A DNA stretch of 64,000 nucleotides from an uncultured Candidatus Saccharibacteria bacterium (lineage in GTDB: Bacteria > Patescibacteriota > Minisyncoccia > Phycocordibacterales > UBA9988), in contig CAYNXC010000002.1 of NCBI GenBank assembly GCA_964401135.1, positions 112,975 to 176,974 on the forward strand. Direction: 5' to 3'. Both the position numbers and the translations under genes were made by a program. Positions 7,391 to 34,613 of this stretch are shown here, piece by piece. Position 1 is the stretch's first letter; each line of letters starts with the position of its first letter. The notes under the pieces were generated by a model that did no database searches, was not told the origin of the DNA, and saw only the letters and a program-made list of their open reading frames with translations.

Positions 7391-7398
7391 AACTCTTG

Positions 7399-19014: not shown

Positions 19015-19021
19015 TACCCAG

Positions 19022-19095
19022 TGCCGAGTCGTCTAATGGTAGGACATCGCCCTTTGGAGGCGAGTATCTTGGTTCGAATCCAAGCTCGGCAGCCA
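19022..19095 (+). tRNA. tRNA-Gln(TTG): tRNA-Gln (anticodon TTG), CCA encoded; overlapped on opposite strand by the 3-prime end of the recombinase ORF
   Basis: acceptor tgccgag/ctcggca (U1-A72), anticodon stem tcgcc/ggcga loop ctTTGga, T-arm cttggttcgaatccaag, discriminator G + CCA. Confidence 0.8.
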
Positions 19096-20694
19096 ATTTG
19101 CATCTTTTTGATGCGCAGACACTTTTTGTCCAGTAGTTGCTGGCTCTTTTGTGATTTCTGCCAGTTCGTAGCTCATATTCAAGCGAGGAATCCAATTATG
19201 CAGAAATTCGGCAGCTTTTGAGTAAACGGGCTTGATTTCATAACGGTTTTGCAGAAGGTTCGTAAAAAGCTGGGAGAGAAGCAGACGCTTTTCCTCGATG
19301 TTGGCTTTCTCATAGATTTCCTTCGACCTGAATGCAAGCTCGTGGACTGCTAGACCAAGATGCAGAAACTCATCATTCTTGTCTCCCAAGCGTTCTAGCG
19401 CAGCTTCCAAGGTTTCTTCTTCGGTAGTGCACTCGGCAATCTTACGCTCAACGTATTCAAGTGGAGCTTCGCGGTTGATTTTTGCTTCGTAGTATTTGTC
19501 CTTCTGTTGGCGCACGTTGGCGAGAAGTCCGTTGAGATGAGCTATTTCTTGCTCGCGTGTCTTGATTTTGTCCGCGTGTTCCTCGCGCAAGATATTTTCA
19601 ATCTCGCATAGCACCTCCTCACTCTTGGGTGCGATGAGGTCAAAGAAGTCTGTATACTGGGACTCAATACGGTCTTGGCGCACGCAGGTTTTACCAGAAC
19701 ACCTCTTATACTCGCCGTGATTATTACAGTGTCCATACCAATGTCCTTTCTTCTCGTACCAGGTCAACATTCCGCCGCAGTGTTCACACTGAATCTTGCT
19801 CTTGAAAAGAGGGTTGTGCTTCGCCAGGTGCGGATTTTTGGTCTTGCGGCGCAAGATAGTCTGTACTTTGTCGAAGGTATCTTTGGTAATGATAGGCTCG
19901 TGCTTCGCAGGTAATACGCCACCTTTCCATCGCATCTTGCCGTAGAAGAAAGGATTTTGCAGAAGCTGGTGGATTTTACTCATCCCAACTTTCTTCCCGC
20001 CTTTCTTGATTTTCTTTCCATCCACTTCTTTTTCAGTGATTCTAGTACGCAGCCCCTTCTCGTATAGTTCCTTTTCTAGCTTTGAAAGGGAGTAGTTGCC
20101 TGTAGCGTACAACTCAAACATTTTTTTGATGTGAGGTGCGATATTCTCATCTACCTGGTGAATCTTGCCACCAGTTTCTTCGAGAGGTTTGTATCCTAGC
20201 GGTGGCTTTGTTGGGTATAGTTCATTCTCGACCTTCACTTTTTGACTCTTACGCACTTCTTCGGAAAGGTTATTGGAATAGAAGCGAGCGATAGCTACTT
20301 TCATATCCCATACAAGATTCTCGTGCGCTCGTGTCTCGCCGTTTGCGATAAATGATTCCTTTACGAAGTGAACAGCCCTCTGCGGGTCAGATTTAAGCCA
20401 TTCATCCACTGTTCCAGCGTCTTTAAGATTTCTAGTCAGACGGTCAATCTTTTCACATAAAATAACAGGAATCTTATTCTTGGTAGCAAACTGAATCATC
20501 TCGTAAAAGGTCTTTCGAGCGTGCTTGCCACTCGCAGATTCAGAGATTCGATACACTTTCACAACATTAAGATTCCTCTTGGTTGCGTGCTCTCTCAAGA
20601 GATTTTCCTGCGCGTCGAGTGAATAGCCAGTTTCCTGGTCTTTGGTTGAAACTCGACAATATGCAACTGCTTTTACTTTTGTTTCTGTGCTCAT
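19033..20694 (-). CDS. large serine recombinase (integrase) of integrated element; last ~21 codons lie antisense to tRNA-Gln
   Basis: N-terminal resolvase catalytic segment AVAYCRVSTKDQ, recombinase domain, zinc beta-ribbon CEHCGG...HCNNH...C, C-terminal coiled-coil. Confidence 0.85.
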   Translation of the reverse strand: MSTETKVKAVAYCRVSTKDQETGYSLDAQENLLREHATKRNLNVVKVYRISESASGKHARKTFYEMIQFATKNKIPVILCEKIDRLTRNLKDAGTVDEWLKSDPQRAVHFVKESFIANGETRAHENLVWDMKVAIARFYSNNLSEEVRKSQKVKVENELYPTKPPLGYKPLEETGGKIHQVDENIAPHIKKMFELYATGNYSLSKLEKELYEKGLRTRITEKEVDGKKIKKGGKKVGMSKIHQLLQNPFFYGKMRWKGGVLPAKHEPIITKDTFDKVQTILRRKTKNPHLAKHNPLFKSKIQCEHCGGMLTWYEKKGHWYGHCNNHGEYKRCSGKTCVRQDRIESQYTDFFDLIAPKSEEVLCEIENILREEHADKIKTREQEIAHLNGLLANVRQQKDKYYEAKINREAPLEYVERKIAECTTEEETLEAALERLGDKNDEFLHLGLAVHELAFRSKEIYEKANIEEKRLLLSQLFTNLLQNRYEIKPVYSKAAEFLHNWIPRLNMSYELAEITKEPATTGQKVSAHQKDANWLPSLDSNQDTRLQRAMSYH

Positions 20695-20700
20695 AGTTGG

Positions 20701-21252
20701 TTATTGGTTATCTTTTTTGTTATTAAGATTTCCATCTCCATCAAGCATTCCCATTTCTTTATAAAACTTCATCCTGCCAGCCTCTGATAGACCCCAGGGA
20801 TTACCTGCTCGCGCTGCTAGTTCTTGCTTGCGCTTTGCTTCGTACTCCTCAAGAAACTTCATTGTCTCTTTCTCTTTTTCCCAACGCTCATTTAGTTTAG
20901 GGTGAGGAATATAAACAGATTTTCCTTGTCGTAATAGTTCAAGCTGTTCCTCAATTTTCCTTTCGTCCTCTCGTTGGTTGTAGAGATGTTGTCCTACGCT
21001 ACAGATTCCCCACACGAGAAGGAAAAGACGGTAGCTCGTATCAATCTTTGTGATTTCAATTCCAATAGTCCAATCAAGAGCTATGCTCAATAGGAAAAGT
21101 ATTCCGAAGGCATAAATGAATCCAAAGAATACGATTCCTAGAAGGTACGAGATGCTTTCCTTTATTTCTTTTAGTGTTGATTGTTCTTGCATACAAAAAG
21201 CGGCAGCCGAGGAGCCTGCTGCCCGTAGTAATGAATTGCACGAGGCAACCAT
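20701..21252 (-). CDS. hypothetical membrane protein of element (2-3 TM helices, charged C-terminal tail); start uncertain
   Basis: hydrophobic segments LLGIVFFGFIYAFGILFLLSIAL and RLFLLVWGICSV; no RBS evident at either candidate start. Confidence 0.45.
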   Translation of the reverse strand: MVASCNSLLRAAGSSAAAFCMQEQSTLKEIKESISYLLGIVFFGFIYAFGILFLLSIALDWTIGIEITKIDTSYRLFLLVWGICSVGQHLYNQREDERKIEEQLELLRQGKSVYIPHPKLNERWEKEKETMKFLEEYEAKRKQELAARAGNPWGLSEAGRMKFYKEMGMLDGDGNLNNKKDNQ

Positions 21253-21375
21253 TTACGGAGGTCTCGACTGCCGCTTTCAGTCCATAAATGGAGCCTGAAA
21301 AGGCAGAGACCTCGTACATATTTCATTACTACAGGCAGCGTACTAATTATAGCAAGGTGTACAATTGTGGCAAGT

Positions 21376-21600
21376 CTACCTTTTGTCCACAGCGTTAAGC
21401 GCATCAGCGATTGCAGCAATAATGTCGTGGATGATACTCTCACTCACTTTTTCGATTTCTTCTTTTGTTAAAGGTCTATCAAGATACGCTTCCGCCTGGT
21501 CTTGCAAGTCAGCTTCTGTAAGCTCGTAGATGGTACGTCCTTCGCCTATTGTGTTCATCTGATTTAGTTGGTTAAAGCTAATAATCTCCAGGGGGTGCAT
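21376..21600 (-). CDS. small acidic hypothetical protein of element
   Basis: 74-aa ORF co-oriented and abutting (3-nt gap) the primase-polymerase gene. Confidence 0.4.
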   Translation of the reverse strand: MHPLEIISFNQLNQMNTIGEGRTIYELTEADLQDQAEAYLDRPLTKEEIEKVSESIIHDIIAAIADALNAVDKR

Positions 21601-21602
21601 TT

Positions 21603-23324
21603 TTAACCATCATCCACCCTGGGTTGGTTGAGTGTGCAAAGTACGGTGTTTTTCTGTCCCTGTTCCGTGTGCACTTCGCCAGCCTCGATAAGTTCTTCGA
21701 GCGTAGTTTTAAGGGTAGAGCGTCCGACTTTCACACCAGCGTCTCCGACACGTTTCAAAACATCACTTTTTGACAGTGGCTCAAGTGATTTTTCCAGTAC
21801 GCTTTTAATAGCCGCCGCAGCCTCTGCCTTCTTGCTCGGTTTCTCTTTCACTTTACCCGCGTACTCGAATCTCAAAGAATGCGGTTCGCTAACGACATTC
21901 ACCTCAAAAGGTTTCTGTTCTTCCTCCTGTCGCAATTTAGTCTGGGTAAGTGTTAAAAACCTCTCATCTGCTTTTCTTGATACAGCAATATGACAGTCCA
22001 GGAACGCGAGAATATCGGATGAGCCACGCATCTCTTGGGATAAATTAGAGGATACGCCACCTTGTTTTCTATGGTGATGCGTGATGAGAACGCTGATGCC
22101 ATTCTTCGTGAACTCTTTGAGATGTTTGGAAACAGCCGCCATTTTTGAAGCATCATTTTCATCTGTATTGTGAATCCTAATGAACGAATCGAAGATGATA
22201 ACTTTCGCTTCCAGCTTTTCGGCTACACCCAGAATGCTTTGCACATTCTCATCATTCAAAGAGAATCCTTGAAGTGAAATAAAGTGAATAGGCAGACCCG
22301 ATGTCGCCGAAAGTTTCTTTAACCGACCTTGAATCAGAGACGGAGAGTTTTCTTCGTCTACGATGAGTACAGGACTTTTCATAACATCAAAGTTATCGAA
22401 AACTCTGTTACCCTCGGCAATTTTGAGTGCGATATGTAGCGTGAGCCACGTCTTGTAGACCGCAGGTGCGCCAGAAATGAAAGTGATAGCGTCTTTCGGA
22501 ATGAGATTCTCGACCACCCACTGAATATCGCCGAAGTCTTGCCGCATCAATTCATCTAGGGACGTTGAAGCGAATGTTTTTGCAGGTTCTTTCTCGCCGC
22601 GCTTCTTGTTTTCACGTTCTCGAATACTCTCAAACGTGCGGCGCAGCTCAACTTCTTCGAGTGGAGGATTGCACTTGCTTTGATTCCAAGCAGATACAAG
22701 CGACCACGCCATTTCCCAGTCATTTCTGTCACGAAAACTACCGAGTAATTTTCCAATGACTTTTGCTGCGGTGTCATTGCGCCTACCTTCCAAAACTTTT
22801 TCATCTGTATTCCGTGAATCATTCCGTGTGCTTACTGGAATCTGTGTATCGAGCACCCACTGTGGCAATTCCTCAAAGCCAGAATCATCAGGAGAAATAA
22901 TCCACTCGTAGGATTTACCACTTTCGTGAATTGAGGGCGGCATAACTACGTACCCACCATCACCACGAACATCCACGTGCGAAATGATTCCAGCACTGTT
23001 TTTAACCTCTCTGCCTGGGTGCTTGTAGAAATAATGTTTTCCTCTACCTGTACGAGAAACTGCTGTAGGAGAAAGTGGTTTGTCTATCTTTTCCATCGTG
23101 TCTACATCAACCACAACAATGCCAGAAATTGCACCTGTAATGACTCCAACATTAGCGTTGGGAAACCGCGCATACCACTCCTCAATTTGTTCCTTCGATG
23201 CTCGCTCTTTCTGATACTTTTGCCAAACTACAAGTGGTTTTTTATCTCGCCCAACAGGAAAAACAGAGAAGCCGAGTTCGGCGTAATGCAATGCTGATTT
23301 AAGAATCTCGTTTCTGTTTTCCAT
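21603..23324 (-). CDS. replication protein: bifunctional DNA primase-polymerase (PrimPol) N-terminal domain fused to RepA/AAA_25-type ATPase-helicase domain
   Basis: PrimPol-like LGFSVFPVGRDKKP...GVITG...VVVDVD; ATPase block LIVDEENSP...VLITHHHRKQGG typical of AAA_25/RepA. Confidence 0.7.
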   Translation of the reverse strand: MENRNEILKSALHYAELGFSVFPVGRDKKPLVVWQKYQKERASKEQIEEWYARFPNANVGVITGAISGIVVVDVDTMEKIDKPLSPTAVSRTGRGKHYFYKHPGREVKNSAGIISHVDVRGDGGYVVMPPSIHESGKSYEWIISPDDSGFEELPQWVLDTQIPVSTRNDSRNTDEKVLEGRRNDTAAKVIGKLLGSFRDRNDWEMAWSLVSAWNQSKCNPPLEEVELRRTFESIRERENKKRGEKEPAKTFASTSLDELMRQDFGDIQWVVENLIPKDAITFISGAPAVYKTWLTLHIALKIAEGNRVFDNFDVMKSPVLIVDEENSPSLIQGRLKKLSATSGLPIHFISLQGFSLNDENVQSILGVAEKLEAKVIIFDSFIRIHNTDENDASKMAAVSKHLKEFTKNGISVLITHHHRKQGGVSSNLSQEMRGSSDILAFLDCHIAVSRKADERFLTLTQTKLRQEEEQKPFEVNVVSEPHSLRFEYAGKVKEKPSKKAEAAAAIKSVLEKSLEPLSKSDVLKRVGDAGVKVGRSTLKTTLEELIEAGEVHTEQGQKNTVLCTLNQPRVDDG

Positions 23325-23326
23325 AA

Positions 23327-23596
23327 TTATTTAATCTTCTTGCTCTTTTCAGCCCAACCACATACGAAGCCTGCCAAGAAGGATGTATCAACCAGGCTTT
23401 TCACATTCAGAAAAGAAATGGGCATACCACCAATTGCATCTGATTTAGCCAGGTTTGTTTGACTGAAATTGGAGAACTCTCGCCACATCTGCTGTTTTAT
23501 TCCCAAGAGTTTTTCTGCTCTTTTTGCGTTGTGTTCGGCTGCGTTGATGACTTGATGCGGGAACTTATTTAAGAACTTTTTAGTAAACTTTTTCAT
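23327..23596 (-). CDS. hypothetical small protein of element
   Basis: ORF only, co-oriented in operon-like array. Confidence 0.35.
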   Translation of the reverse strand: MKKFTKKFLNKFPHQVINAAEHNAKRAEKLLGIKQQMWREFSNFSQTNLAKSDAIGGMPISFLNVKSLVDTSFLAGFVCGWAEKSKKIK

Positions 23597-23603
23597 ATCT
23601 CAA

Positions 23604-23783
23604 TTAGCTATTTTTATTTACCTCCTCGTTTTTAATGCGAAGCTCAATCCTTGCGAGCGTCAGGTAGTAGTCCATTGCTGCTTCCAGCAACTTCTTCACA
23701 TCCTCATCGGGTATACCCGTGAACGCTCCGAGCTTGTCGAAAGGTTTGCGTAGCCGTGCAATTTGTTCGGGTCTCAATTGCAT
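23604..23783 (-). CDS. hypothetical 59-aa protein (below ORF-track cutoff)
   Basis: in-frame ATG..TAA MQLRPEQIARLRKPFDKL..., fills gap between co-oriented genes; not otherwise supported. Confidence 0.25.
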   Translation of the reverse strand: MQLRPEQIARLRKPFDKLGAFTGIPDEDVKKLLEAAMDYYLTLARIELRIKNEEVNKNS

Positions 23784-23785
23784 AG

Positions 23786-24055
23786 CTACTTCTCCGCATA
23801 GAGGCGGTTCTTAAGTTGGCGGAAATTATGGAACAGACTTTGGATGGGGACTTCAATTGTTTTGTCTCCCCAGAAGTCGCTGATAGCTGTTTCAATTCCT
23901 TCCGTCGCGGCAAACACAAAGTCCATCCTCTTGTCGCTTGTACGCTCCAAACCGACCAATTTGAATTGGAGCGTGAGCAGCGTTGCTGCCAAGCCAATAT
24001 CACTGATGAATACTTTTTGCTCTGTGCTTGCCATACTCTGATTCTTGCAAGCCAA
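23786..24055 (-). CDS. hypothetical small protein of element (strand choice tentative; alternative + ORF 23816-24067)
   Basis: co-orientation with flanking minus-strand genes. Confidence 0.3.
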   Translation of the reverse strand: MACKNQSMASTEQKVFISDIGLAATLLTLQFKLVGLERTSDKRMDFVFAATEGIETAISDFWGDKTIEVPIQSLFHNFRQLKNRLYAEK

Positions 24056-24163
24056 GTCCGTACCTAGATATCTCCATAGATACTTTCCAAAAGAGAAAAC
24101 ACTCCCAGAAATGAGAGTGTCTTTTTTACTTGTCCACAGTAGCTATTGAGTACCTATGGGTAC

Positions 24164-24871
24164 CTATCCGATTTTGATGATTTCTATCCGAGGGTTGAGT
24201 CTGTAGCCGCTCCCTTGTTTCGCTTCAATGAGTTTGAGTGAACCTTTTAAGTCCAGCTCGTCAGCAGTTGCTTTATTGAGCTTTCCAAACTCATTGCGCA
24301 ATCGTGCCGATGTCATATCAAGTTCTGATGCCATATCCTGCGTACTTAACTCGTAGTCAGCATTAGGATTGTCAATAAGATATTTGAAAACTTTGAAAGG
24401 CGCTCCATTTCGTGCCATAGAGTATGATTTTTCTTTCGTGTCCTTGAAAACAATCCCTTCGTCTTTGTAGTACAGAACCAATTTGTCTATTGGTGTTTGA
24501 GTAGAGACAACAGACTTTTGCTTATTCACAAATGCCGCAATCTTCTTCGGGTCAATCGTTATACGCCACGCGGTTTCTATGGAGTCGAGCATTTCCTCGT
24601 CGTTTTTTCGCCAGTTTTCTATATCTGCCTCTGATATCTCGTTGAAGTGCCATTCATTTTCTCCGCTCGTTCGCTCCATTTGTCCTTTGCATTGTTCGTG
24701 ATTGCTTACGCCGTGTTTGGATAGAAGCGAAAATCCCAGCATTAAATCGTGCAAGGTAATACCTTTCGCATCAAACATTTTTGTCGGTACATACACGACA
24801 CTTTTTTCTTTATTAAAATCTACACGCGAGTAGTCGTGAATGACTTTTGCGATATCCATCTCCATTGCCAT
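24164..24871 (-). CDS. hypothetical protein of element, possible C-terminal DNA-binding domain
   Basis: 235-aa ORF divergent from xis-like gene; no firm motif. Confidence 0.4.
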   Translation of the reverse strand: MAMEMDIAKVIHDYSRVDFNKEKSVVYVPTKMFDAKGITLHDLMLGFSLLSKHGVSNHEQCKGQMERTSGENEWHFNEISEADIENWRKNDEEMLDSIETAWRITIDPKKIAAFVNKQKSVVSTQTPIDKLVLYYKDEGIVFKDTKEKSYSMARNGAPFKVFKYLIDNPNADYELSTQDMASELDMTSARLRNEFGKLNKATADELDLKGSLKLIEAKQGSGYRLNPRIEIIKIG

Positions 24872-24938
24872 TTATCCAGTTTACCACAACTGGACACATT
24901 TGCTCATAGGCTTACATCGTAGTATTATGAGTATACCT

Positions 24939-25151
24939 ATGAAGAAAAGTAAGGAGGAGCAATTTTTGACTCTTCAAGAGGTCGCCAAGCGCTTGCGGGT
25001 TAGCGAGCGTTCGGTGTTTCGATATATTCACGACGGAAAGATTGAAGCCACGAAAGTGGGCTACTGGCGCATCACTGAAAGTGCTTTGGCAAAGTTTTTG
25101 AAAGACCGCTCCAATCTGAACAAGTCGCCGCGTAAGAAGTCGAAAAAGTAA
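24939..25151 (+). CDS. xis: excisionase-family HTH DNA-binding protein (MerR/Xis-like HTH_17); start at MKKSKEEQ
   Basis: LTLQEVAKRLRVSERSVFRYIHDGKIEATKVGYWRI matches excisionase/HTH_17 pattern. Confidence 0.7.
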   Translation: MKKSKEEQFLTLQEVAKRLRVSERSVFRYIHDGKIEATKVGYWRITESALAKFLKDRSNLNKSPRKKSKK

Positions 25152-25176
25152 CCTCGTTTTTTGAAATGGAAATGTA

Positions 25177-27687
25177 ATGCAAAAAGAAGCCAAAGCCAGA
25201 ATCAAAATAAACAACCTACTACAGCAATCTGGCTGGAGGTTTTTCGATGATGAGAACGGCAAGGCAAACATCACCCTTGAGCTTAATACCAAACTTACGA
25301 ACAAAGATATCAATGATATCGGCGAAAACTTTGAGAACACAAAGAACGGTTTTGTAGACTTCCTTCTGCTCGACGATAAGGGCTTTCCGTACGTTGTTCT
25401 TGAGGCAAAGTCCGAGGACAAAGACCCTCTTGATGGTAAAGAGCAGGCACGTCGCTATGCGCAGTCTCTGAACGTCCGCTTTGTTATCCTTTCAAACGGG
25501 AACCTCCACTACTTCTGGGACTTGGAGCGCGGCAATCCATCCATCATTATCCAATTCCCAACACCTGAATCTCTACAACATTTTGAGCAGTTCAAACCGA
25601 ATCCTAAACAACTTGCCGAGGAAAAAGTTTCTAACGATTACATAGTTCTTACCCAGAAAGCGGAGTACCAAAATGACCCGCGCTGGATAGACGAAGCACA
25701 GCGAGATGATTTCGTGTACGCGGAGTCGCTCAAGTTCTTGCGCCCGTATCAGCTTCGTGCGGTTCAGTCTCTCCAAGAAGCTGCTACTGCTGGTAATGAC
25801 CGTTATCTTTTTGAGATGGCAACGGGTACGGGTAAAACACTCGTGTCTGCTGCTGTTATCAAACTCTTTCTCAAGTCTGGTAATGCAAAGCGCATCCTCT
25901 TTCTTGTAGACCGTTTGGAACTTGAAGACCAAGCCGCAAAGAGTTTTAAGAAACTACTCTCGAAGGATTACACAACTGTTATCTACAAGGAGAGCAAGGA
26001 CGATTGGCGTAAGGCAGAGATTGTTGTCTCAACAGTGCAAAGTCTATCTTTCAATAACAAATACCAGCGACTCTTTTCTCCAACTGACTTCGACCTCATT
26101 ATCTCTGACGAAGCCCATCGTTCAATAGGCGGAAACAGCCGTGCGGTTTTCGAGTATTTTGTTGGCTACAAGCTCGGACTTACAGCAACACCAAAAAATT
26201 ATCTCAAGGGCATTGACCCAGATAAACTCAACTCAAAAGACCCTCGTGCGTGGGAACGCCGACAACTTCTTGATACCTACAAGACTTTTGGTTGCGAGAG
26301 CGGAGAACCTACATTCCGATACACACTCCTCGATGGCGTGAAAGATGGATATCTCATCAACCCTGTTGTTGCTGATGCTCGTACAGAGATTACGACAGAG
26401 CTTCTTTCAGAGAAGGGATATTCTCTGATGGTTGAAAGTGAAGATGGTAAAGAGGAGGAACAGGTCTTCTTTCATACTGATTTCGAGCGTAAGTTTTTCT
26501 CCGACAAGACCAATCAGATTTTGTGCAAAACATTCTTGGAAAACGCACTCAAAGACCCGATTACGGGTGAAATAGGAAAAGGTATCGTTTTCTGTGTGAG
26601 CCAGAAGCACGCCTCAAAAATTACCCAGACGCTCAATCAGTTTGCAGACCAGCTTTATCCAGGAAAGTACAACTCCGATTTTGCGGTGCAGATTACTTCC
26701 AACATTCCGAACGCACAGGAATATACCATCAACTTTGCGAACAATAACCTTAATGGCTATACGAAGTTCCTGGATGGCTATCGTTCCAGCAAGACACGCG
26801 TCTGCGTAACGGTAGGAATGATGACAACAGGATATGACTGCGAAGATATCCTGAATGTGGCACTGATGCGCCCTATATTCTCTCCAACAGATTTCATTCA
26901 GATAAAGGGACGCGGTACACGTAAGTTTTCGTTTGTGCACCAGGAAAAAGAAGGTGGCGAGATACAAGAAGCAAAGATACCAAAAGACAAGTTCAAGCTG
27001 TTCGATTTCTTTGCGAACTGTGAATACTTCGAGGACAAATATAACTACGATGAGGTTTTGGTTCTTCCAACCATCGGCACGGGCACAGGTGGTGGTGATG
27101 GTGTGAATATAGACGAAGTATCAATCACACAGCACGACCCACTCAAGACGTTTACTGAAAAAGCGGTTGGTATGGATGGAATGAAGATTGACCGCAAGCT
27201 ATTTGAGAAGTTTGAGGCGGCAATCAAAGAAGACCCATTCATCAAACAGAAATACGAAGAAGGCGACCTTGCTTCCATCGAAAATTACGTAAAAGAAAAT
27301 ATCTTCGATAAGCCAGAGGAATGGTTTAGTCTCGATAAGCTCCGCAAGTCTGTCAAAGCTGACCGTCGCATCAGCATCCGTGAGTTCATTGCCAAAGCGT
27401 TTGGAGGCATCACCAGGTTCAAGTCAAAGGATGAATTGCTTGAAGATGAGTTTGAGCAATTTGTCGCTATCAACAAACCAGACAGCCAATACGTAATGCC
27501 AATCAAGAATTATTTGAAGGCATACATCACTGATAACGAAATTAGAGACATTATCGAGAAAGGAGAATATACGCGCTTGGCAACCAACCCCAAGCTCACG
27601 TTTGCTGACCTCCAAGAGCTAAATGGTTGGATTGAACGCGTGCCAGAATACGTGAAGGACTACGTATCTCTTAACGCTTATATGTAA
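25177..27687 (+). CDS. hsdR: Type I restriction enzyme R subunit
   Basis: HsdR_N nuclease motif VDFLLLDDKG...VVLEAKSE, SF2 helicase motifs ATGTGKT (I), DEAHR (II), C-terminal helical region. Confidence 0.9.
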   Translation: MQKEAKARIKINNLLQQSGWRFFDDENGKANITLELNTKLTNKDINDIGENFENTKNGFVDFLLLDDKGFPYVVLEAKSEDKDPLDGKEQARRYAQSLNVRFVILSNGNLHYFWDLERGNPSIIIQFPTPESLQHFEQFKPNPKQLAEEKVSNDYIVLTQKAEYQNDPRWIDEAQRDDFVYAESLKFLRPYQLRAVQSLQEAATAGNDRYLFEMATGTGKTLVSAAVIKLFLKSGNAKRILFLVDRLELEDQAAKSFKKLLSKDYTTVIYKESKDDWRKAEIVVSTVQSLSFNNKYQRLFSPTDFDLIISDEAHRSIGGNSRAVFEYFVGYKLGLTATPKNYLKGIDPDKLNSKDPRAWERRQLLDTYKTFGCESGEPTFRYTLLDGVKDGYLINPVVADARTEITTELLSEKGYSLMVESEDGKEEEQVFFHTDFERKFFSDKTNQILCKTFLENALKDPITGEIGKGIVFCVSQKHASKITQTLNQFADQLYPGKYNSDFAVQITSNIPNAQEYTINFANNNLNGYTKFLDGYRSSKTRVCVTVGMMTTGYDCEDILNVALMRPIFSPTDFIQIKGRGTRKFSFVHQEKEGGEIQEAKIPKDKFKLFDFFANCEYFEDKYNYDEVLVLPTIGTGTGGGDGVNIDEVSITQHDPLKTFTEKAVGMDGMKIDRKLFEKFEAAIKEDPFIKQKYEEGDLASIENYVKENIFDKPEEWFSLDKLRKSVKADRRISIREFIAKAFGGITRFKSKDELLEDEFEQFVAINKPDSQYVMPIKNYLKAYITDNEIRDIIEKGEYTRLATNPKLTFADLQELNGWIERVPEYVKDYVSLNAYM

Positions 27688-27689
27688 TT

Positions 27690-30113
27690 ATGCTTACCGC
27701 AGAAACAAAAAGAAAAATTGATAATGCGCGAGATATCCTCGTAGGAAAAGTGCCAGACCCGAAGGCGCAGGTGGAGCAGATTACTACGGCGCTCATCTAT
27801 AAGTTTATGGATGATATGGATATGCACTCTGCCTCTCTCCCGAAAGGTAAAGCGCAATTCTTCACTAACGGTTTTGGAAAATATGCCTGGAGCAAACTGA
27901 TGGATGCGAAACTTGGTGGGCAAGAGCGTCTGAATCTTTACGAGGAAGCGATTAGAAAGATGTCTACTAATCCACACTTACCTCAACTTTTTCGTGATGT
28001 ATTTAAGGATGCTTATCTACCTTATCGAGACCCACAAACACTTAATCTTTTCTTGAAGGAGATAAACGATTTTGAATACGACCATAGCGAGAATCTTGGT
28101 GATGCGTTTGAATACCTACTTTCTGTACTTGGCTCTCAAGGTGAGGCTGGACAATTTCGCACACCACGCCACATCATTGATTTCATTGTTGAAGTGCTTG
28201 ACCCTAAAAAAGATGAAACCATCCTCGACCCAGCGTGTGGTACGGCAGGTTTTCTAATTTCTGCATATAAACACATACTCAAGGCAAATGAAAAAAAGCG
28301 ACTTACACCAGACGAAAAAAAGCGGCTAATGAGCAATTTGGCTGGATACGATATTTCACCAGATATGGTGAAGCTCTCTCTTGTGAATATGTATCTCCAC
28401 GGTTTTCCAAGTCCGAATATTCACGAATACGATACACTCACAAGCGATGAACGTTGGGACGAGCACTTTGACGTAATGATGGCGAATCCTCCTTTTATGA
28501 CTCCGAGGGGCGGTATCCGTCCTCATAAGCGATTTATGGTGCAAGCGAATCGTGCAGAAGTCTTGTTTGTTGATTACATAATGGAACATCTCAACAGCAA
28601 GGGGCGCGCAGGTATTATTGTTCCTGAAGGTGTTATTTTTCAATCTGCTGGTGCATATAAAGAGTTGAGGCGAGCGCTTGTGGCAGATGGATTGTATGCG
28701 GTTGTATCTTTACCTGCTGGTGTCTTTAATCCTTATGCGGGAGTGAAAACCAGTATCCTATTTTTTGATAACCAACTCTCAAAGTTATCCAAGGAAGTGC
28801 TTTTTATCAAAGTACTCAATGATGGTTTTAGTTTAGGTGCACAACGTAGACCAATAGATAAAAATGATTTACCACACGCTCTCAAGGTTTTGCAGGCGCA
28901 CAAAGAGGCAATACTCAATAAGAAAAGAAGCCCTCTCAAAAAAGAAAACCTGTTTGCTTGGACAATAAGTAAAAAGAAAATTGCTGAACGTGTTGATACT
29001 AACCTTGAGGGAGAGAGATACAAACCAGTAAAGTTTGCTGAAAGATTGAAGCATCCATTAGAGGAGTTGGGTAACATTATCGAACTCGATTTTGGAACGA
29101 GGATTACTCAAAAGAATAATACTGGCAGTCTATATCCTGTTTATGGTGGAGGCGGTGAAAGTTTTAGAACCGATGACTTCAACAGGCAGGATGAGGTAGT
29201 GATTTCGAGGTTTGCTATGTCAGAAAATTGTGCGCGAGTTGTGAAGGAAAAGTTTTTCCTAATGGACTCTGGTTTTACTTACTCAATCAAGGAAGAGTTT
29301 GCTGCTAGGGCGGATAAACAGTTCATAGATTACCTAATACTCAATATGCAGGAGCGTATCTATGCCTGTGGCAGAGGGCACGCCCAAAAGAATCTTGATA
29401 CCAAGGCTTTCAAAAAGTTACTCATTCCACTTCCAACACTTGAGGAACAGAAACAAATTATTTCTGAATTAGATAGCTACCAAAAAGTGGTTGATGGTGC
29501 GAATCAAGTAATTGAACACCACAAACCATCAATTCAAATTAGCGAGTCTTGGGAACGAGCAGAACTAGGTGATATTGCCAAGATGGAGTATGGATACACA
29601 GAAACAGCAAAGATTAAGGGAGATGCTCGTTTTGTCCGTATAACAGATATCAGTAACGAAGGACACCTAAAGTCGGAAGGTGCGAAGTACGTAAACCTTA
29701 CCAAAGAGGCAAAGGCATACTTACTCAAGCGCGGGGATGTTCTTGTTGCCCGTACTGGTGCAACGTATGGCAAAACTATGATTTTCAATGAAGAATATCC
29801 AGCAGTATTTGCTTCGTTTCTTATTCGCCTCAATTTCGATACCAAAAAGATTCTCCCAGAATACTATTGGGCATTTGCTCAAACCACTGATTACTGGAAT
29901 CAAGCAAGGGCGTTAGTAACAGGCGGTGTGCAGCCGCAGTTCAATGGTAATGCAATGAAACATCTTTCTATTCCACTACCAAGTTTAGAAGTCCAAGAGC
30001 AAATTATTGCTCAAGTGAAAAATGAACAAGCACACGCTTCATCTGCGATGAAAATGGTTGAGATTTATGGAGATAAGATTAAAAATAAAATTGCCGAAAT
30101 ATGGGGCGAATAA
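27690..30113 (+). CDS. hsdMS: fused Type I R-M methyltransferase-specificity protein (HsdM ~470 aa + HsdS with two target-recognition domains)
   Basis: HsdM N-terminal domain, SAM motif DPACGTAGFL, catalytic NPPF; C-terminal two TRD blocks each ending in HsdS conserved spacer LPLPTLEEQKQI / LPLPSLEVQEQI; uninterrupted 807-aa frame. Confidence 0.85.
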   Translation: MLTAETKRKIDNARDILVGKVPDPKAQVEQITTALIYKFMDDMDMHSASLPKGKAQFFTNGFGKYAWSKLMDAKLGGQERLNLYEEAIRKMSTNPHLPQLFRDVFKDAYLPYRDPQTLNLFLKEINDFEYDHSENLGDAFEYLLSVLGSQGEAGQFRTPRHIIDFIVEVLDPKKDETILDPACGTAGFLISAYKHILKANEKKRLTPDEKKRLMSNLAGYDISPDMVKLSLVNMYLHGFPSPNIHEYDTLTSDERWDEHFDVMMANPPFMTPRGGIRPHKRFMVQANRAEVLFVDYIMEHLNSKGRAGIIVPEGVIFQSAGAYKELRRALVADGLYAVVSLPAGVFNPYAGVKTSILFFDNQLSKLSKEVLFIKVLNDGFSLGAQRRPIDKNDLPHALKVLQAHKEAILNKKRSPLKKENLFAWTISKKKIAERVDTNLEGERYKPVKFAERLKHPLEELGNIIELDFGTRITQKNNTGSLYPVYGGGGESFRTDDFNRQDEVVISRFAMSENCARVVKEKFFLMDSGFTYSIKEEFAARADKQFIDYLILNMQERIYACGRGHAQKNLDTKAFKKLLIPLPTLEEQKQIISELDSYQKVVDGANQVIEHHKPSIQISESWERAELGDIAKMEYGYTETAKIKGDARFVRITDISNEGHLKSEGAKYVNLTKEAKAYLLKRGDVLVARTGATYGKTMIFNEEYPAVFASFLIRLNFDTKKILPEYYWAFAQTTDYWNQARALVTGGVQPQFNGNAMKHLSIPLPSLEVQEQIIAQVKNEQAHASSAMKMVEIYGDKIKNKIAEIWGE

Positions 30114-31459
30114 CCAAGAACATTATGAACCTCACCACTGAACAAAAGAAGGAACTGGAATCTTACTTGACGACATATCGAGACGTGCCAATTGTCGAGA
30201 ATGACGGTATGCAAGAATCATACGCATCCTTTGATGATAAGCGTGTTGCTGCAACAGTTGAGATAAAGAAGCTGGTTGATGATTTTCTGCGCGGCGGTCT
30301 TTCTGTTGCCGAGTTCAAGGAACAAAGCGATGCAATGAGTCGCAAGTTTTCATATTGGGGGTTCAAAGGTTTTAGCGGACAGATGCAGCTCAACCAGTAC
30401 GCAAACAATATCGAAGACGCAGAACAAGAGCAGCGTCTTAAGGAAGCTATTGCATTGCCCGCAACTCTCGATGAGGCGGTAGCGAAAATAAACACTTTCG
30501 CGGAGTATATGCGGGAGCTGAAAACAAAAACCGATAATCCCAAGAGTATCCCGCGTATCAACCAGTCTTTTATGCTCTCGTACTTCTGGGAGATGCAAAG
30601 CCCTGAACTCTATCCTGTGTACTTCGGTTCAATGAAGAACGTGTTGGAAAACCTGGGCTTTGACTTCAAGAGCCAAGAGACACCAGGAGACGAGTACCGA
30701 TACTTTGCAGAGATTTGCTACGCAGTTCGTGAGTTCTTTGAACAGAGCGGAATGCAGGAAACACACCCGATATGGTACGTCGAACACGTTATCTGGCACT
30801 ACTTCAAAAAGCAGAATACGGAGATTGAGACAGAGGTAAAACAAGCAGTGCCAAGCAAAATCAGAATCGGAAAAACACCAGAAGAAAGTTGGACACCACC
30901 TATCATTGGCGACCTTGAACAATTGGCGCTCAATCAAGAAACCGAATGGTCAAAATTGCGTGGGCTAAAACCTGAAAAAGCGTTTGAGACCAAGCTACGT
31001 TATCTGTTTACCATTCTTGGATACAACACCACCGAGCTTGGACAAGGTAGAGGCAGAGAGCCAGACGGTATTACTATCTCCAATGACGGTAACGCTGGCT
31101 ATTACGCCATCATCTACGATGCAAAAGCACGAGAAAAGGATTACTCAATCGGTACACAAGACCGAGAGATTGTTGAATACATCAAAAACAAACAGCGTGA
31201 GTTGCAGCGCCAGCGCGTTGATAAGGTTTCTTTCTTGATTGTTTCTTCGGAGTTCACTAACAGTCCTTCACTTGAAAACTCACTCAAAGACATCTACCGA
31301 GCAACGCGAGTACCAGTGATTCTCGTACGGGCAAAAGACCTGTTGCGTATCGTCGAGCGCAAACTATCGAATGCAGATATAGACCACGTGCAGCTCGAAG
31401 ACCTGTTCCTTGAGACAGGCGTACTCACCGCAGATAAAATTGTGGACGTACTTGGATAA
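30101..31459 (+). CDS. hypothetical protein with C-terminal Mrr-like PD-(D/E)xK restriction-endonuclease fold and unrecognised ~280-aa N-terminal domain; overlaps hsdMS stop (alternative start 30125)
   Basis: C-terminal ILGYNTTELGQGRGREPDGITIS...YAIIYDAKAREK fits Mrr_cat PD...(D/E)xK pattern; N-terminal region has no recognisable motif. Confidence 0.6.
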   Translation: MGRITKNIMNLTTEQKKELESYLTTYRDVPIVENDGMQESYASFDDKRVAATVEIKKLVDDFLRGGLSVAEFKEQSDAMSRKFSYWGFKGFSGQMQLNQYANNIEDAEQEQRLKEAIALPATLDEAVAKINTFAEYMRELKTKTDNPKSIPRINQSFMLSYFWEMQSPELYPVYFGSMKNVLENLGFDFKSQETPGDEYRYFAEICYAVREFFEQSGMQETHPIWYVEHVIWHYFKKQNTEIETEVKQAVPSKIRIGKTPEESWTPPIIGDLEQLALNQETEWSKLRGLKPEKAFETKLRYLFTILGYNTTELGQGRGREPDGITISNDGNAGYYAIIYDAKAREKDYSIGTQDREIVEYIKNKQRELQRQRVDKVSFLIVSSEFTNSPSLENSLKDIYRATRVPVILVRAKDLLRIVERKLSNADIDHVQLEDLFLETGVLTADKIVDVLG

Positions 31460-31460
31460 T

Positions 31461-32273
31461 ATGAAAAAGAAAACCGCCATCATACTCATAGTTGTTGCCG
31501 CTATCATCGCCTTCATCGCGGGGGCGTGGGTTTTTATGGGCGACTATTACGAAGCTGATGAGACTGCGTACATTCCTGAAAGTTGCAACGTGCTTGCGTT
31601 CGCCGTCAACGGTTATCTTGCTACATACACCAGCGACACCACAGCAGAAGAACTCGAAATGGATGCTGTTTCGTCGTGGAATATCGCCGATGGCATCCGC
31701 CACGCAAAAGATTACCCGAACGTCAAAGCAATCCTACTTTCCGTTGATTCAAGTGGCGGAGACCCCACCACTGGTGAAGAGATAGCAAACGCTCTCAAAG
31801 CCCTAGAATTGCCTTCTGTAGCGGTTATCCGAAGCATCGGAGCATCTGCTGCATATTGGGCTGCTACAGGAGCGGATACAGTCTTTGCATCTCGTGTTTC
31901 TGATGTTGGCAGTATCGGCGTTACCGCTTCTTATCTTGATGAGACCGTTAAGAATGCAAAGGATGGCTACACACTTGTAGAACTATCATCAGCACCACAC
32001 AAAGATGCGGGTAGCCCGAACCGCGCTCTCACTGCGACAGAAAAAGCAGCTATCGTTTCCGACCTCAAGAAGATACACGAAGTATTTGTTGATGATGTTG
32101 CTGCGAATCGAAACCTTGAACGTGAGAAAGTGGCACAGCTTGCGAACGGACTCACCTATCTCGGCGTTGACGCGCTTGAGTACGGCTTGGTAGATAAACT
32201 CGGCGACTTCACTGCCGCCACTGACTACATCGCAGAACAGATTGGCGAGCCAGTGGAGTTGTGTTGGTACTAG
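31461..32273 (+). CDS. sppA: signal peptide peptidase SppA-like (S49 / ClpP-fold) with N-terminal TM anchor
   Basis: TM helix AIILIVVAAIIAFIAG, S49 core ILLSVDSSGGDP...VIRSIGASAAYWAA. Confidence 0.75.
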   Translation: MKKKTAIILIVVAAIIAFIAGAWVFMGDYYEADETAYIPESCNVLAFAVNGYLATYTSDTTAEELEMDAVSSWNIADGIRHAKDYPNVKAILLSVDSSGGDPTTGEEIANALKALELPSVAVIRSIGASAAYWAATGADTVFASRVSDVGSIGVTASYLDETVKNAKDGYTLVELSSAPHKDAGSPNRALTATEKAAIVSDLKKIHEVFVDDVAANRNLEREKVAQLANGLTYLGVDALEYGLVDKLGDFTAATDYIAEQIGEPVELCWY

Positions 32274-32280
32274 AAATAAA

Positions 32281-32790
32281 ATGAATTGGCGTGAGAAGGT
32301 ACTAAAGAAACATAAGAAAGAAATTATCCTGTCGGCAGCGTTCGCTCTTACGCTTGCACTGGCAACTGCACTTTGGCACTACTTCACAGGAAAGAGTTTT
32401 GAGTGGCAGTCCATCACTCCGATAGAGCAGCCAGGACTGTTGCCGCGTCTCTTTTACAGCGCACTCGTCTTTGCTGTGCCTGGTTGGTTTCTGTACCACA
32501 AGCTCAAGTTTTGGAAGTTTCTATACGAACCTTATCGTGGAACTGGGCGGCGTGGTTATCGTGAGTATAAGAAACTCAAAGCCGCCATCTGGGGTCTCCT
32601 CATTCTTCTGATGTATTTTGTTATTGTGCCGTTTGTTGTAGATATTCTAAACACCATCATCTCGTTCTTCTTTAATCTCTACGTTCTCGTGCTGTATCTT
32701 GTCCCTTCACTTGCTATCTCGCTGCTTGTCTGTGGGGTTGGATTATTCATTTACAAAAAACACAATGCTCTCAAAAGAAGCACTCAATGA
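32281..32790 (+). CDS. hypothetical 4-TM membrane protein downstream of sppA
   Basis: four hydrophobic helices; basic loops; position analogous to small membrane partner genes of sppA operons. Confidence 0.5.
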   Translation: MNWREKVLKKHKKEIILSAAFALTLALATALWHYFTGKSFEWQSITPIEQPGLLPRLFYSALVFAVPGWFLYHKLKFWKFLYEPYRGTGRRGYREYKKLKAAIWGLLILLMYFVIVPFVVDILNTIISFFFNLYVLVLYLVPSLAISLLVCGVGLFIYKKHNALKRSTQ

Positions 32791-32950
32791 GTTCAAGAAA
32801 ATATGGCGGGAGGAGAAGGGTGAAGATGTATCCGACGAGCTTGCCGTTGAAGAAGCCATAAACCTCCTTACGTTGTTCAGCGCCATCTATCGCCCTGTGA
32901 AGCAGGAATGGGTAGATGAATACGACCGCACCCACAAGGTTAAAGAGTAA
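32765..32950 (+). CDS. hypothetical small protein (61 aa), last gene of element cargo array
   Basis: ORF overlapping the previous gene end by 26 nt; no motif. Confidence 0.3.
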   Translation: MLSKEALNEFKKIWREEKGEDVSDELAVEEAINLLTLFSAIYRPVKQEWVDEYDRTHKVKE

Positions 32951-33299
32951 TGCTCCCTAGATATTAGACTTTTGACCAAGAGTTTTTGGGTGAAAAAAGT
33001 GCGGGTGGAGAGGGTGTCCCCCGCGAAAGGAAAGGAGCGGAATGGAAAACTCCCACCACCCATTTCTGGATTTCGTACAAAACAACCCAAGATGAACGGG
33101 GTATACCCCTTTTGAGTGCTGTTTAGTCATCAATGCTATAGAAATGAGCACTAATGAACACACGGTAGGTACTAAAGTAAGAACAGGCAGAGGTATGGTG
33201 GGCACACTGTCCTTGTGTGGCATATCTACTACAGTGCTCGGACATATCTACCCCCTGTGCTATCTCACCACAGCCAATAACTGCTGCATCTGCTGTAGG

Positions 33300-33590
33300 G
33301 AAACGGTAGGATATGGGAATAGTTCAAGCCAGTTGATAGTTCGTAGTTCCTCCCGCCAAGCCAGCCACATTGTATGAATCGGAAAGGTTGCCTAGCCCGC
33401 TCGCTACTGGAGACCGTCGGGCCGGCCAAGCACGACCTTGCAAAGGTTGGACTCTGGCCACACGACGAACAGAGAGACGGGAAGTGCATGGATGGTACAG
33501 AGCTCTACGACCACCTCATTGTTCCAGCATAGGGTTCGAGATTTGAAACTATGGTCATGGCTTACGGAGTGAGGGAGCCGAGTAGGAAAG
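33300..33590 (+). ncRNA. candidate structured ncRNA, possibly a reduced RNase P RNA; coordinates and strand approximate
   Basis: ORF-poor GC-rich segment with ordered short matches to bacterial RNase P conserved regions: GGAAAGgttgcc, ccacacgacgAACAGAGAGac, cagcAUAGGGuUCgag, AUGGCUUAC; not verifiable without a covariance-model search. Confidence 0.25.
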
Positions 33591-33984
33591 AGGCAAGAGC
33601 TTTCTTTGCTTTCTCTGACGATCCGTGTTGCTTTGTAAACGCTTCGGTACCGTCCTTACCGCAAAGTCCAAGGATTGCGTCTTCTCCACCAGGGTGTTTA
33701 CTGATCCAGTCGGTGAGGTCGTACACATTTCCTCCTACAGCTGTGTAGCAGCTCGAAGTATCTGCATGCGCGGCTACATCTGCCATCGTAAAGATGACCC
33801 CGATATTAAGCTCATCCGCTACTTGGTCTGAGCTCGTTGCTACTTGTGTGCCTGGGGCACTATTTTGTCTATAGCTAATAAACGCAATTCCTCCGACGAC
33901 CAGCACTCCGGCAATATATAGATATAGTCTGTCCATATTCATATTTTTTTTATGCCAATGACTACTCGTAGCGCAGAGTGCCAA
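33562..33984 (-). CDS. cytochrome b5-like heme-binding domain protein with N-terminal TM anchor
   Basis: TM LYLYIAGVLVVGGIAFI; Cyt-b5 motif DLTDWISKHPGGEDAILGLCGKDGTEAF. Confidence 0.7.
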   Translation of the reverse strand: MALCATSSHWHKKNMNMDRLYLYIAGVLVVGGIAFISYRQNSAPGTQVATSSDQVADELNIGVIFTMADVAAHADTSSCYTAVGGNVYDLTDWISKHPGGEDAILGLCGKDGTEAFTKQHGSSEKAKKALASFLLGSLTP

Positions 33985-34208: not shown

Positions 34209-34613
34209 ATGGAACAATTGCCACACAGAGAAGAGGCTCTTGAAGTTCCTGAAAAAGAAGACTCTGTGCGGTACGAGCTCCTTGCTCGTGCCGATGAAGC
34301 AGTTGCACAAGCCGTGCACGAACTTTCTGTACGCACAGAAGCAGAACTGGAGACCCTCACTCATTTTGAACTGAATGGACGGGAGTGGAAGATAGAGGAT
34401 GCAGACGATAGAGTCTTTGCAATGGAGTTGAGACTCTTGGAAGGGGTACGCGATATTGCGGATCGGGAGACTGATTACTATAGAAAGAAAGGGCTACTCA
34501 AGGTTTTTGAACTGCAACAGTCGCACATAGAGATACTCCGCCGTACGATAGAATTGAAGCGGGATTGGCCATTGGTAGCAGCGCAGATGGAAGGCAGAGA
34601 ACAAAACAGATGA
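34209..34613 (+). CDS. hypothetical acidic protein
   Basis: 134-aa ORF, ATGA overlap with downstream GH15-like gene. Confidence 0.4.
   Translation: MEQLPHREEALEVPEKEDSVRYELLARADEAVAQAVHELSVRTEAELETLTHFELNGREWKIEDADDRVFAMELRLLEGVRDIADRETDYYRKKGLLKVFELQQSHIEILRRTIELKRDWPLVAAQMEGREQNR

Follow-up and report, generated by a model that had tools for sequence, protein, structure and literature searches.

A defence-carrying integrative element at the 3' end of a tRNA-Gln gene in a Patescibacteria-like genome, with an integrase gene apparently split by integration

A 14,272-bp integrative element adjoins the 3' end of tRNA-Gln in a stretch of 64,000 nucleotides (hereafter the window) taken from contig CAYNXC010000002.1 of the GenBank assembly GCA_964401135.1, deposited as an uncultured Candidatus Saccharibacteria bacterium. 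Strong sequence evidence argues that the integrase gene of this element, coding for a large serine recombinase (LSR), is split by integration, with most of the gene lying at the left boundary of the element and its displaced 3' end at the right boundary. An earlier reading of the same DNA, made from the letters alone (hereafter the original prediction), had proposed a mobile element at this tRNA gene, and the proposal is borne out by an empty site in a near-identical strain and by the confirmation of both junctions of the occupied site. The host is likely to be a Paceibacteria-like bacterium of the Candidate Phyla Radiation (CPR)/Patescibacteria, carrying an integrative, self-replicating, plasmid-like element that was inserted by the LSR at the 3' end of tRNA-Gln.

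Element boundaries and insertion site

Metagenome contigs from near-identical strains were retrieved by exact-protein look-up of the flanking genes. The original prediction had suggested that relatives be searched for an empty tRNA-Gln site, and such a site is present in the Logan contig L099 (SRR12404947), where the tRNA-Gln gene is joined straight to the sequence from window position 33368 onward. The junction reads ...GGTTCGAATCCAAGCTCGGCAGCCA followed by CATTGTATGAATCGG..., or, with a longer left side, ...AAGCTCGGCAGCCA followed by CATTGTATGAATCGG..., and the flank is 98.8% identical to that of the window. Both junctions of the occupied site are matched at 100% identity by the Logan contigs L001 and L092 (both SRR10580904). 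The attL, attR and attB sites share only the 6-bp direct repeat CAGCCA, and this short shared repeat, together with the exact junctions in L099, sets the limits of the element at 19096-33367. Since the assemblies were built with 31-mers, a 6-bp repeat is unable to produce the empty-site junction artificially, and we infer that the L099 junction is not an assembly artefact. The features of the insertion site are as follows.

19022-19095, plus strand: host tRNA-Gln(UUG), CCA end encoded (ARAGORN); B arm of attB
19090-19095, plus strand: attL core CAGCCA, tRNA positions 71-76, including the encoded CCA (comparison of empty and occupied sites)
33362-33367, plus strand: attR core CAGCCA (comparison of empty and occupied sites)
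33368-33392, plus strand: host B' arm of attB, at the very start of the conserved right flank

The tRNA-Gln sequence is identical in L099 and the gene is intact in the occupied as well as the empty site; a crossover within CAGCCA would leave the tRNA unchanged by integration. No second copy of the tRNA 3' end was detected in the window with up to 3 mismatches allowed, and a long att repeat is thus absent, as the original prediction had expected. The right boundary itself had been placed at 32.95-33.3 kb, about 70-400 bp too far to the left of 33367. Another candidate for the right junction, AGCCAAT at about 33272, was ruled out by the empty-site contig.

The same core is used by at least three other elements in other samples, with flanks 98.6-100% identical. 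The contigs L093, L094, L099 and L101, comprising the empty site and contigs with other elements, all align from 33362 onward; at the right ends in L093 and L094/L101 the core is joined to sequences unlike the window element, while the left end in L002 carries a variant recombinase at the same core. Further distinct left junctions at tRNA-Gln were observed in L007 and L009/L010. The L007 junction consists of CAGCCA followed by AAAAAAAGAATCACC. Contigs L009 (1094-3757) and L010, from two other samples, carry the same DnaX and tRNA-Gln as window 17956-19095; their tRNA-Gln ends in ...GGCAG followed by CAATCATGTGAG, with CCA not encoded, and downstream lie genes for membrane, DUF305 and DsbA-like proteins, none of which is present in the 64-kb window, with no adjacent integrase. 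Four contigs from four samples (L003, L004, L005 and L008) all terminate at 19058, in the middle of tRNA-Gln, probably through the sharing of 31-mers with the tRNA-Gln genes of co-occurring species.

A reference genome with an empty site was also sought, and was rejected as a means of comparison, the best DnaX match being only 57% identical (Candidatus Taylorbacteria/Paceibacterota) and hence too distant. This level of identity indicates that the host belongs to an unrepresented lineage of CPR/Patescibacteria.

The split integrase gene

The original prediction had described a serine recombinase gene that ends antisense in tRNA-Gln, and both parts of the description agree with the present analysis. 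The 553-amino-acid (aa) ORF matches Resolvase (PF00239, residues 9-157, 1.9e-22), Recombinase (PF07508, 5e-15) and Zn_ribbon_recom (PF13408, 6.6e-4, below the gathering score), and residues 227-424 show a distant match to the A118 integrase structure (PDB 4kis, E 3e-7). In an alignment of 26 sequences, R14, V15 and S16, in the region of the nucleophilic serine of the catalytic domain, and C303, C306, C323 and C332 are invariant. Scores against the NCBIfam equivalogs fall far below all the cut-offs. The ORF is predicted with confidence to encode a genuine LSR.

The two parts of the gene are located as follows.

19033-20694, minus strand: integrated form of the integrase, 553 aa (Pfam Resolvase, Recombinase and Zn_ribbon_recom; PDB A118 integrase 4kis; translation)
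33260-33361, minus strand: displaced integrase 3' end of 33 codons (AWREELRTINWLELFPYPTVSLQQMQQLLAVVR) plus stop, in frame with the W-L of the core (profile match)

The last 20 sense codons and the TAG stop of the integrated form (19033-19095) are antisense to tRNA-Gln. Codons 1-533 are encoded by the element and W534-L535 are derived from the core, whereas the last 18 codons and the stop are antisense tRNA-Gln. When the ends of the element are joined in silico to form a circle, the integrase ORF extends to 568 aa and ends in ...DANWL-AWREELRTINWLELFPYPTVSLQQMQQLLAVVR. A profile built from the tails of 11 homologues, none of them from the window, was searched against the six frames of the window; it matches only 33263-33391 on the minus strand (E 1.3e-20), and the next best match has an E-value of 0.42. 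The original prediction had regarded the 417-bp stretch to the left of the right boundary as free of ORFs, which it is not, since 33260-33361 codes for the displaced integrase C-terminus. It had seen the overlap with the tRNA correctly and had taken it for a curiosity; the overlap appears to be the mark of an attP core inside the integrase ORF.

Judged from the sequence, the attP core lies within the integrase ORF, 33 codons ahead of the natural stop, and integration would move the 3' end of the gene to attR, apart from the rest. The integrated 553-aa form is accordingly predicted to be a chimera in which a C-terminal module has been swapped for 18 antisense-tRNA residues, and in the case of the window element only the excised circle could encode the complete integrase.

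The conserved module of the full-length tail has the form (W/L)LAWxxxLRTxxWxxxFPxPxVSLxQxxxLL. The right ends of other elements at the tRNA-Gln site encode WLCLLEKVRT.. or WLCLLNKIRT.. in the same frame, and the module is free of stops and frameshifts in every displaced copy found. Pairwise identities by codon position were calculated for nine distinct tail-coding sequences. In codons 11-31, which correspond to 31-93 nucleotides (nt) from the core and fall outside the 25-bp attP half-site of the A118 structure, the identities at positions 1, 2 and 3 are 0.55, 0.71 and 0.36, respectively, a pattern that indicates selection on the protein. With a third-position identity of 0.69, codons 1-10 would seem to be under an additional, overlapping constraint as DNA.

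The structure of a homologue, P0068, was predicted with AlphaFold2 (AF2) from an alignment of 81 sequences (mean pLDDT 85). The model shows beta strands at 298-312 and 466-480 and long helices at 348-395 and 401-452, which come after the zinc ribbon as in the coiled-coil insertion of LSRs. Residues 508-524 are disordered (pLDDT below 50), and the tail is modelled as three short helices (518-529, 532-535 and 539-552; pLDDT about 75-83). The integrase tail thus looks like a small helical module tethered behind a disordered linker.

At attR, the host triplet CAT right after the core provides an in-frame ATG on the minus strand, and the displaced tail (window 33260-33370) could be translated as a free 36-aa peptide, MWLAWREELRT...AVVR. 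This micro-ORF has the same orientation as the host cytochrome b5 (cyt-b5) gene, from which it is separated by about 190 nt on the downstream side. Of 6 independent displaced tails, 4 (window, L133/L134 and L115) have an in-frame ATG 0-3 codons from the core; those of L120/L121 and L186 have none. A start codon ahead of the displaced tail was therefore rejected as a general feature, 4 of 6 being too inconsistent.

Organisation of the attachment sites

The two left arms carry related motifs, located as follows.

19072-19078, plus strand: T-loop motif GTTCGAA in the left arm of attB, starting 18 nt left of the core; putative recognition motif of the zinc ribbon domain (ZD)
33339-33345, plus strand: T-loop mimic GTTCGTA in the left arm of attP, starting 23 nt left of the core

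The junction obtained by joining the ends of the element (attP) reads ...CCGCCAAGCCAGCCAATTTGCATC... and that of attB reads ...CTCGGCAGCCACATTGTATG.... The attP motif lies 5 bp further out from the core than the attB motif, and its minus strand encodes the Leu-Arg-Thr (LRT) of the integrase tail. In 11 of 14 tails of the attP type, CGAAC occurs at nt 25, counted from the W/L codon, and encodes the Arg-Thr of LRT; in tails of the tRNA type, the true T-loop CGAAC is at nt 20. The right att arms are without such a motif, the 5-bp offset being confined to the left arms. For LSRs, a zinc-ribbon motif that sits 5 bp nearer to the centre of attB than to that of attP has been described (Rutherford et al., PMC3783163), with a 4-bp shift instead in SPbeta (PMC11722253). 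These positions suggest that the LSR recognises the conserved T-arm of tRNA genes. If the geometry of A118 holds, in which the motif occupies positions 11-19 of attB and 16-24 of attP, the 5' side of the core, at CA or AG, would be the place of the crossover.

Occurrence of the split gene in related integrases

More than 1,000 homologues of the integrase were identified at E <= 1e-20, the few named ones being from CPR lineages. Their C-termini are of two kinds, antisense-tRNA peptides or the conserved module. In the first kind, a conserved ...P-x-(W/L)-L is followed by peptides such as RGWDSNPRP or PDLDSNQDKRIQSPLSYH, where the W codon, TGG, reads CCA in antisense and DSN reads the T-loop in the same way. 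A metagenome scan gave 80 loci (L112-L191), 66 of which allowed the 3' end of the integrase to be judged. The homologous ORF stops within an antisense tRNA gene or abuts one in 43 of the 66, the targets being tRNA-Asn (32), Gln (5), Ser (2), Asp (2), Ile (1) and Glu (1); tRNA-Asn(GUU) is thus by far the commonest target. Seven homologues have the full tail, while the remaining 16 mostly carry tRNA-like tails near contig ends or possibly at tRNAs missed by ARAGORN. Several loci with LLRG- or LLRR-type ends showed no detectable tRNA. Group I introns that hide tRNA-Asn and tRNA-Asp genes were described in Patescibacteria in 2026 (PMC13011429), and such introns could explain the undetected tRNAs.

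On each of L120/L121, L133/L134 and L186, the displaced tail lies a few kb upstream of a truncated integrase at a tRNA and has the same orientation; both halves share a contig, and these represent complete small integrated elements. The homologue P0068, which has the full tail, is encoded on L109, a contig with a 55-bp terminal overlap that closes it into a circle of 8,984 bp. L110, from another sample, is a circular permutation of L109 at 100% identity, and the full-length integrase is present on both. L109/L110, a relative at 54% identity, represents the free form of a related element with an intact integrase gene. In L115, an integrase homologue (6001-7566, plus strand) ends in ...ELLPE*, and the matching displaced tail (NELAWQDSLRTIKW...) is found at 11559-11651 on the minus strand, 4 kb downstream on the opposite strand; the locus could be the product of an inversion or contain a second element in the opposite orientation.

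Three relatives, distant to moderately close and all at contig ends, were found in IMG/VR. The relatives L220 and L221 have the backbone order of the window element, in which an ORF of about 230 aa is followed by DUF5659, a small ORF, the replication protein, another small ORF and the integrase; their replication protein is a Toprim primase, that of the window element the PrimPol-AAA_25 protein. On the other strand, L220 carries a type III-like restriction-modification (R-M) cargo with an HTH_17 gene, and L221 a PHP/AAA protein.

Proposed mechanism

The free circle would express the complete 568-aa integrase, which would recombine attP with attB at the tRNA 3' end, the target being found through the T-arm motif. 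The integrated copy would then make a tail-swapped enzyme, less active or different in activity, by which the island would be stabilised; excision would restore the integrase gene, perhaps with the help of the HTH_17 protein. Replication of the circle would fall to the PrimPol-helicase, the host or the element would profit from the type I R-M system and the remaining cargo, and transfer from cell to cell would take place by other routes, since the element has no transfer genes. The boundaries, the core, the split gene with its restored ORF, the pattern across the family, the circular relative and the offset between the attB and attP motifs are shown by the sequences; within this scheme we infer the difference in activity between the 553-aa and 568-aa forms, the role of the HTH_17 protein as a recombination directionality factor (RDF) and the route of transfer.

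A more far-reaching version, which we put forward tentatively and at rather low confidence, is that the exchangeable C-terminal module acts as a built-in sensor of state that sets the direction of recombination, with the recognition of the T-loop and CCA end copied into the coding sequence of the integrase itself. The integrase of the circle, with its tethered module, would be competent for attP x attB recombination; the integrated form would lack the module, which might be released as the free 36-aa peptide from the ATG at attR. Altered control of the coiled coil would then make excision or silencing follow the topology of the element, beyond the action of a separate RDF alone. An LSR family spread across the CPR would recognise the universal T-loop and CCA end of tRNAs, mimicked as Leu-Arg-Thr, and such universal recognition would explain the repeated switches among tRNA-Asn, Gln, Ser, Asp, Ile and Glu.

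Alternative explanations

Several observations weigh against this reading of the element. The 568-aa protein is absent from a collection of 15 billion proteins and the attP junction of the window element from IMG/VR, and a circular form of the window element was found in neither. The truncated 553-aa form may be fully active, and the AF2 model is silent on where the tail docks. The best dyad symmetry of attB and attP at any centre is 9/24 against a null of 6.0 +/- 2.2; with no symmetry above chance, the crossover dinucleotide is not placed. Dyad symmetry is weak in many LSR att sites, so its lack does not exclude membership of the LSRs. Full-length homologues (P0058, P0064 and P0077) lie within the long contigs L102-L108 (150-488 kb); for these unsplit chromosomal copies, tandem elements, another att site or a larger composite element are among the possibilities. 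A full-length integrase was also considered as a marker of the free circle and was rejected on account of these three copies. The neighbours in L102-L108 include TrwB-like, OLD-nuclease, ArdC, IS21 and tyrosine-integrase genes, and L105 also has PKD/CHU_C and IS66 genes of Bacteroidota-like appearance.

The main alternative is that the overlap reflects incidental packing, attP lying in a dispensable 3' end of the integrase gene and the 553-aa form working as well as the 568-aa form. We regard this as possible, though on the unlikely side. It accords with the predominance among database copies of the truncated type, with arbitrary tails of 2-40 residues, with the disorder of the 28 C-terminal residues of the SPbeta integrase in cryo-EM maps (PMC11722253), with a similar 'trivial' reading given for dsiB by McMurdie et al. 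(PMC3146451) and with the constraint on the proximal tail as DNA (third-position identity 0.69). However, it does not account for the signature of protein selection (0.55/0.71/0.36) in codons 11-31, beyond the 25-bp A118 attP half-site, and it is at variance with the intactness of the displaced module in every copy found and with the folded helical unit predicted by AF2 after the disordered linker. That the element is a fixed relic, decaying after its integrase was inactivated by the split, is decidedly unlikely: all its ORFs are intact, the displaced tail is intact and in frame, the site is polymorphic in near-identical hosts (empty, or occupied by at least three other elements, with flanks 98.6-100% identical) and a relative exists as a free circle, although no circular form of the window element was detected and the exact integrase protein is found on a single Logan contig and one NCBI contig only. 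A phage satellite or degraded prophage packaged by a helper, with the S49 peptidase of the element as the head-maturation protease, appears very improbable. The S49 protein matches phrog_53, 'head maturation protease', at 1.6e-45, tycheposons of the satellite type combine an integrase, a primase and one packaging gene (10.1101/2020.12.28.424599), and three distant relatives occur in IMG/VR; yet capsid, portal, terminase and tail families are found in no ORF, the peptidase scores better as SppA (TIGR00706, 2.7e-41) and has a membrane protein after it, and the relatives L220/L221 have other defence-type cargo at that position.

Gene content of the element

The remaining ORFs of the element, all of which are intact, are listed below.

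20701-21252, minus strand: 183-aa ORF without family match, also called on the Logan contig L001
21376-21600, minus strand: 74-aa ORF without significant family match
21603-23324, minus strand: fusion of PrimPol, PriCT_1 and AAA_25 (RepA/DnaB-like ATPase) (Pfam 3.5e-34, 5.8e-12 and 9.1e-26)
23327-24055, minus strand: three small backbone ORFs of 89, 59 and 89 aa, the last being DUF5659 (Pfam 4e-9)
24164-24871, minus strand: 235-aa backbone ORF without family match, with ORFs of about 230 aa in the same place in relatives
24840-25151, plus strand: HTH_17/excisionase-family gene (Pfam 6.6e-13; PHROG excisionase families; TIGR01764)
25177-27687, plus strand: HsdR (Pfam ResIII and HSDR_N; PADLOC REase_I 1.9e-55)
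27690-30113, plus strand: fused HsdM-HsdS (Pfam N6_Mtase 7.3e-55 and Methylase_S; PADLOC MTase_I 1.3e-102 and Specificity_I 2.7e-46)
30101-31459, plus strand: 452-aa protein with a C-terminal FokI-type cleavage domain (Pfam PF09254, 1.4e-7) and an N-terminal region without family match
31410-32273, plus strand: S49 (SppA-type) serine peptidase (Pfam 6.2e-29; TIGR00706 2.7e-41)
32242-32790, plus strand: membrane ORF without family match, called on L092
32699-32950, plus strand: small ORF without family match, called on L092

The fusion of PrimPol with AAA_25, recognised in the original prediction, is supported by its Pfam matches, and the protein also matches the PHROG DNA polymerase/primase families. 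The assignments of hsdR, the fused hsdM-hsdS and sppA likewise hold, and the functions of HsdR, HsdM and HsdS for a type I R-M system are all encoded (PADLOC). The gene taken previously for Mrr-like has no match to an Mrr family and is to be reassigned to the FokI cleavage domain. No match for the FokI-domain protein was found in the PADLOC, NCBIfam and PDB sequence searches, and the same searches gave no defence-system assignment for the FokI-like, S49 and membrane genes.

The HTH_17 gene is divergent from the backbone and first in the cargo operon, its start codon probably being internal to the called ORF. Its reading as an excisionase ('Xis') gene holds for the family, while a role in excision is unproven; the protein is a candidate for either an RDF or an operon regulator. 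It shows a weak match to the MADS protein MAD1 (NCBIfam, 1.6e-4, below the cut-off), and PADLOC gives mad2 and mad5 matches for the HsdM-HsdS fusion. Membership of the 'Xis-like' gene in the R-M operon is thus possible.

The shift in composition noted earlier is confirmed: the GC content is 44.2% in the element and 48.4% elsewhere in the window (Mann-Whitney p = 5e-6 on 1-kb tiles), and the tetranucleotide distance between element and host is 0.022, three-fold the distance from the host of any host chunk of equal size (<=0.0074). Capsid, portal, tail and terminase families were found in no ORF of the element (Pfam and PHROGs), the S49 peptidase giving the only phage-like match, nor were relaxase, coupling protein or type IV secretion families found in any ORF of 19096-33367 (Pfam). 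The absence of capsid, tail, terminase and conjugation genes had been stated in the original prediction, and its description of a compact, integrative, plasmid-like element with defence cargo stands.

Beyond the right boundary, the cyt-b5 gene is called from 33936, and a version of the protein from the ATG at 33942 found nothing in the look-up. The GH15-family gene (34209-35644, plus strand) is overlapped upstream by a 134-aa ORF, the two being called as separate genes of 134 and 344 aa; its GH15 Pfam match spans only the first 191 of 427 profile positions, and it may be a truncated or split glycoside hydrolase.

Significance

The locus provides a precisely bounded case, complete with an empty site, in a family of more than 1,000 homologous integrases that appears to deliver R-M and other defence genes to tRNA genes in the CPR. 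A gene that is complete only on the circle amounts to a natural experiment on the effects of the C-terminus on LSR activity and directionality, a question under current structural study. The targeting of tRNA ends with a T-loop mimic in attP may explain the switching of targets within the family, and T-loop targeting could be useful in the design of integrases against conserved sites. The split gene also explains the odd, non-homologous C-termini annotated for such integrases and the assembly breaks at these tRNAs.

Comparison with known systems

The nearest likeness is to the ssrA islands of Dehalococcoides, in which the gene of a CcrB-like LSR, dsiB, marks the left border, is directed outward and always extends over attL and into the 3' end of a tRNA-like gene (PMC3146451). 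The C-terminus of DsiB is variable, different islands pile up downstream of the same gene, and dsiB was speculated to be fully functional only on the circle (McMurdie et al. 2011, PMC3146451). The target in Dehalococcoides is tmRNA, with a 20-bp repeat and insertion at the T-loop, whereas the window element enters a tRNA gene through a 6-bp core at its CCA end. DsiB acts with a second small recombinase, DsiA, in islands without replication genes; the window element has no second recombinase and carries a PrimPol-helicase. Neither a conserved C-terminal module that is restored, nor a circular form, nor the geometry of att motifs was shown for DsiB.

The tycheposons and cryptic integrative elements of Prochlorococcus (Hackl et al., 10.1101/2020.12.28.424599) are alike in being compact and tRNA-targeting; besides a site-specific integrase they carry an excisionase-type gene, a replication module with primase/helicase and a variable cargo of adaptive or defence genes, and they lack conjugation genes. 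The window element has the same design of a tRNA-site integrase with a replication gene and cargo and without transfer genes. Tycheposons differ in the host phylum and in the use of tyrosine recombinases (910 of 937) as against an LSR, and a limited term search of that text (10.1101/2020.12.28.424599) found no mention of a split integrase gene.

The LSRs of phages and integrative conjugative elements (A118/LI, phiC31, Bxb1, SPbeta SprA, CcrB and XisF) share with the window integrase the catalytic, recombinase and zinc ribbon domains with a coiled-coil insertion, a short common core and an attP arm motif 5 bp further from the centre (PMC3783163). The window integrase is distant from them in sequence, targets a tRNA 3' end rather than a protein-coding gene, has attP inside its own ORF and bears an extra tethered C-terminal module.

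In the SSV-type tyrosine integrases of Sulfolobus fuselloviruses, att lies inside the integrase gene and integration at a tRNA interrupts or alters the gene (PMC5861418). These enzymes and the Int of Myxococcus phage Mx8 are tyrosine recombinases, unrelated in fold and mechanism, and SSV1 splits its gene near the 5' part. Mx8 Int reportedly also has att inside the integrase gene, which is altered on integration at a tRNA, and is said to have a large C-terminal segment replaced. Unlike in SSV1 and Mx8, only a 33-aa tethered module, that of a serine recombinase, is exchanged in the window integrase.

In the full text of the literature searched, nothing closer was found for CPR mobile elements with serine recombinases or for LSRs with attP in the integrase gene, nor was a description of this element family found. 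As an integrative, replicative and defence-carrying unit, the element is of an ordinary type, and an integrase gene overlapping attL has been known since 2011 from the Dehalococcoides ssrA islands. What sets the present family apart, to judge from its sequences, is an integrase module that is both conserved and exchangeable, a core located at the CCA end and accompanied by the T-loop mimic, and the spread of the family across the CPR.

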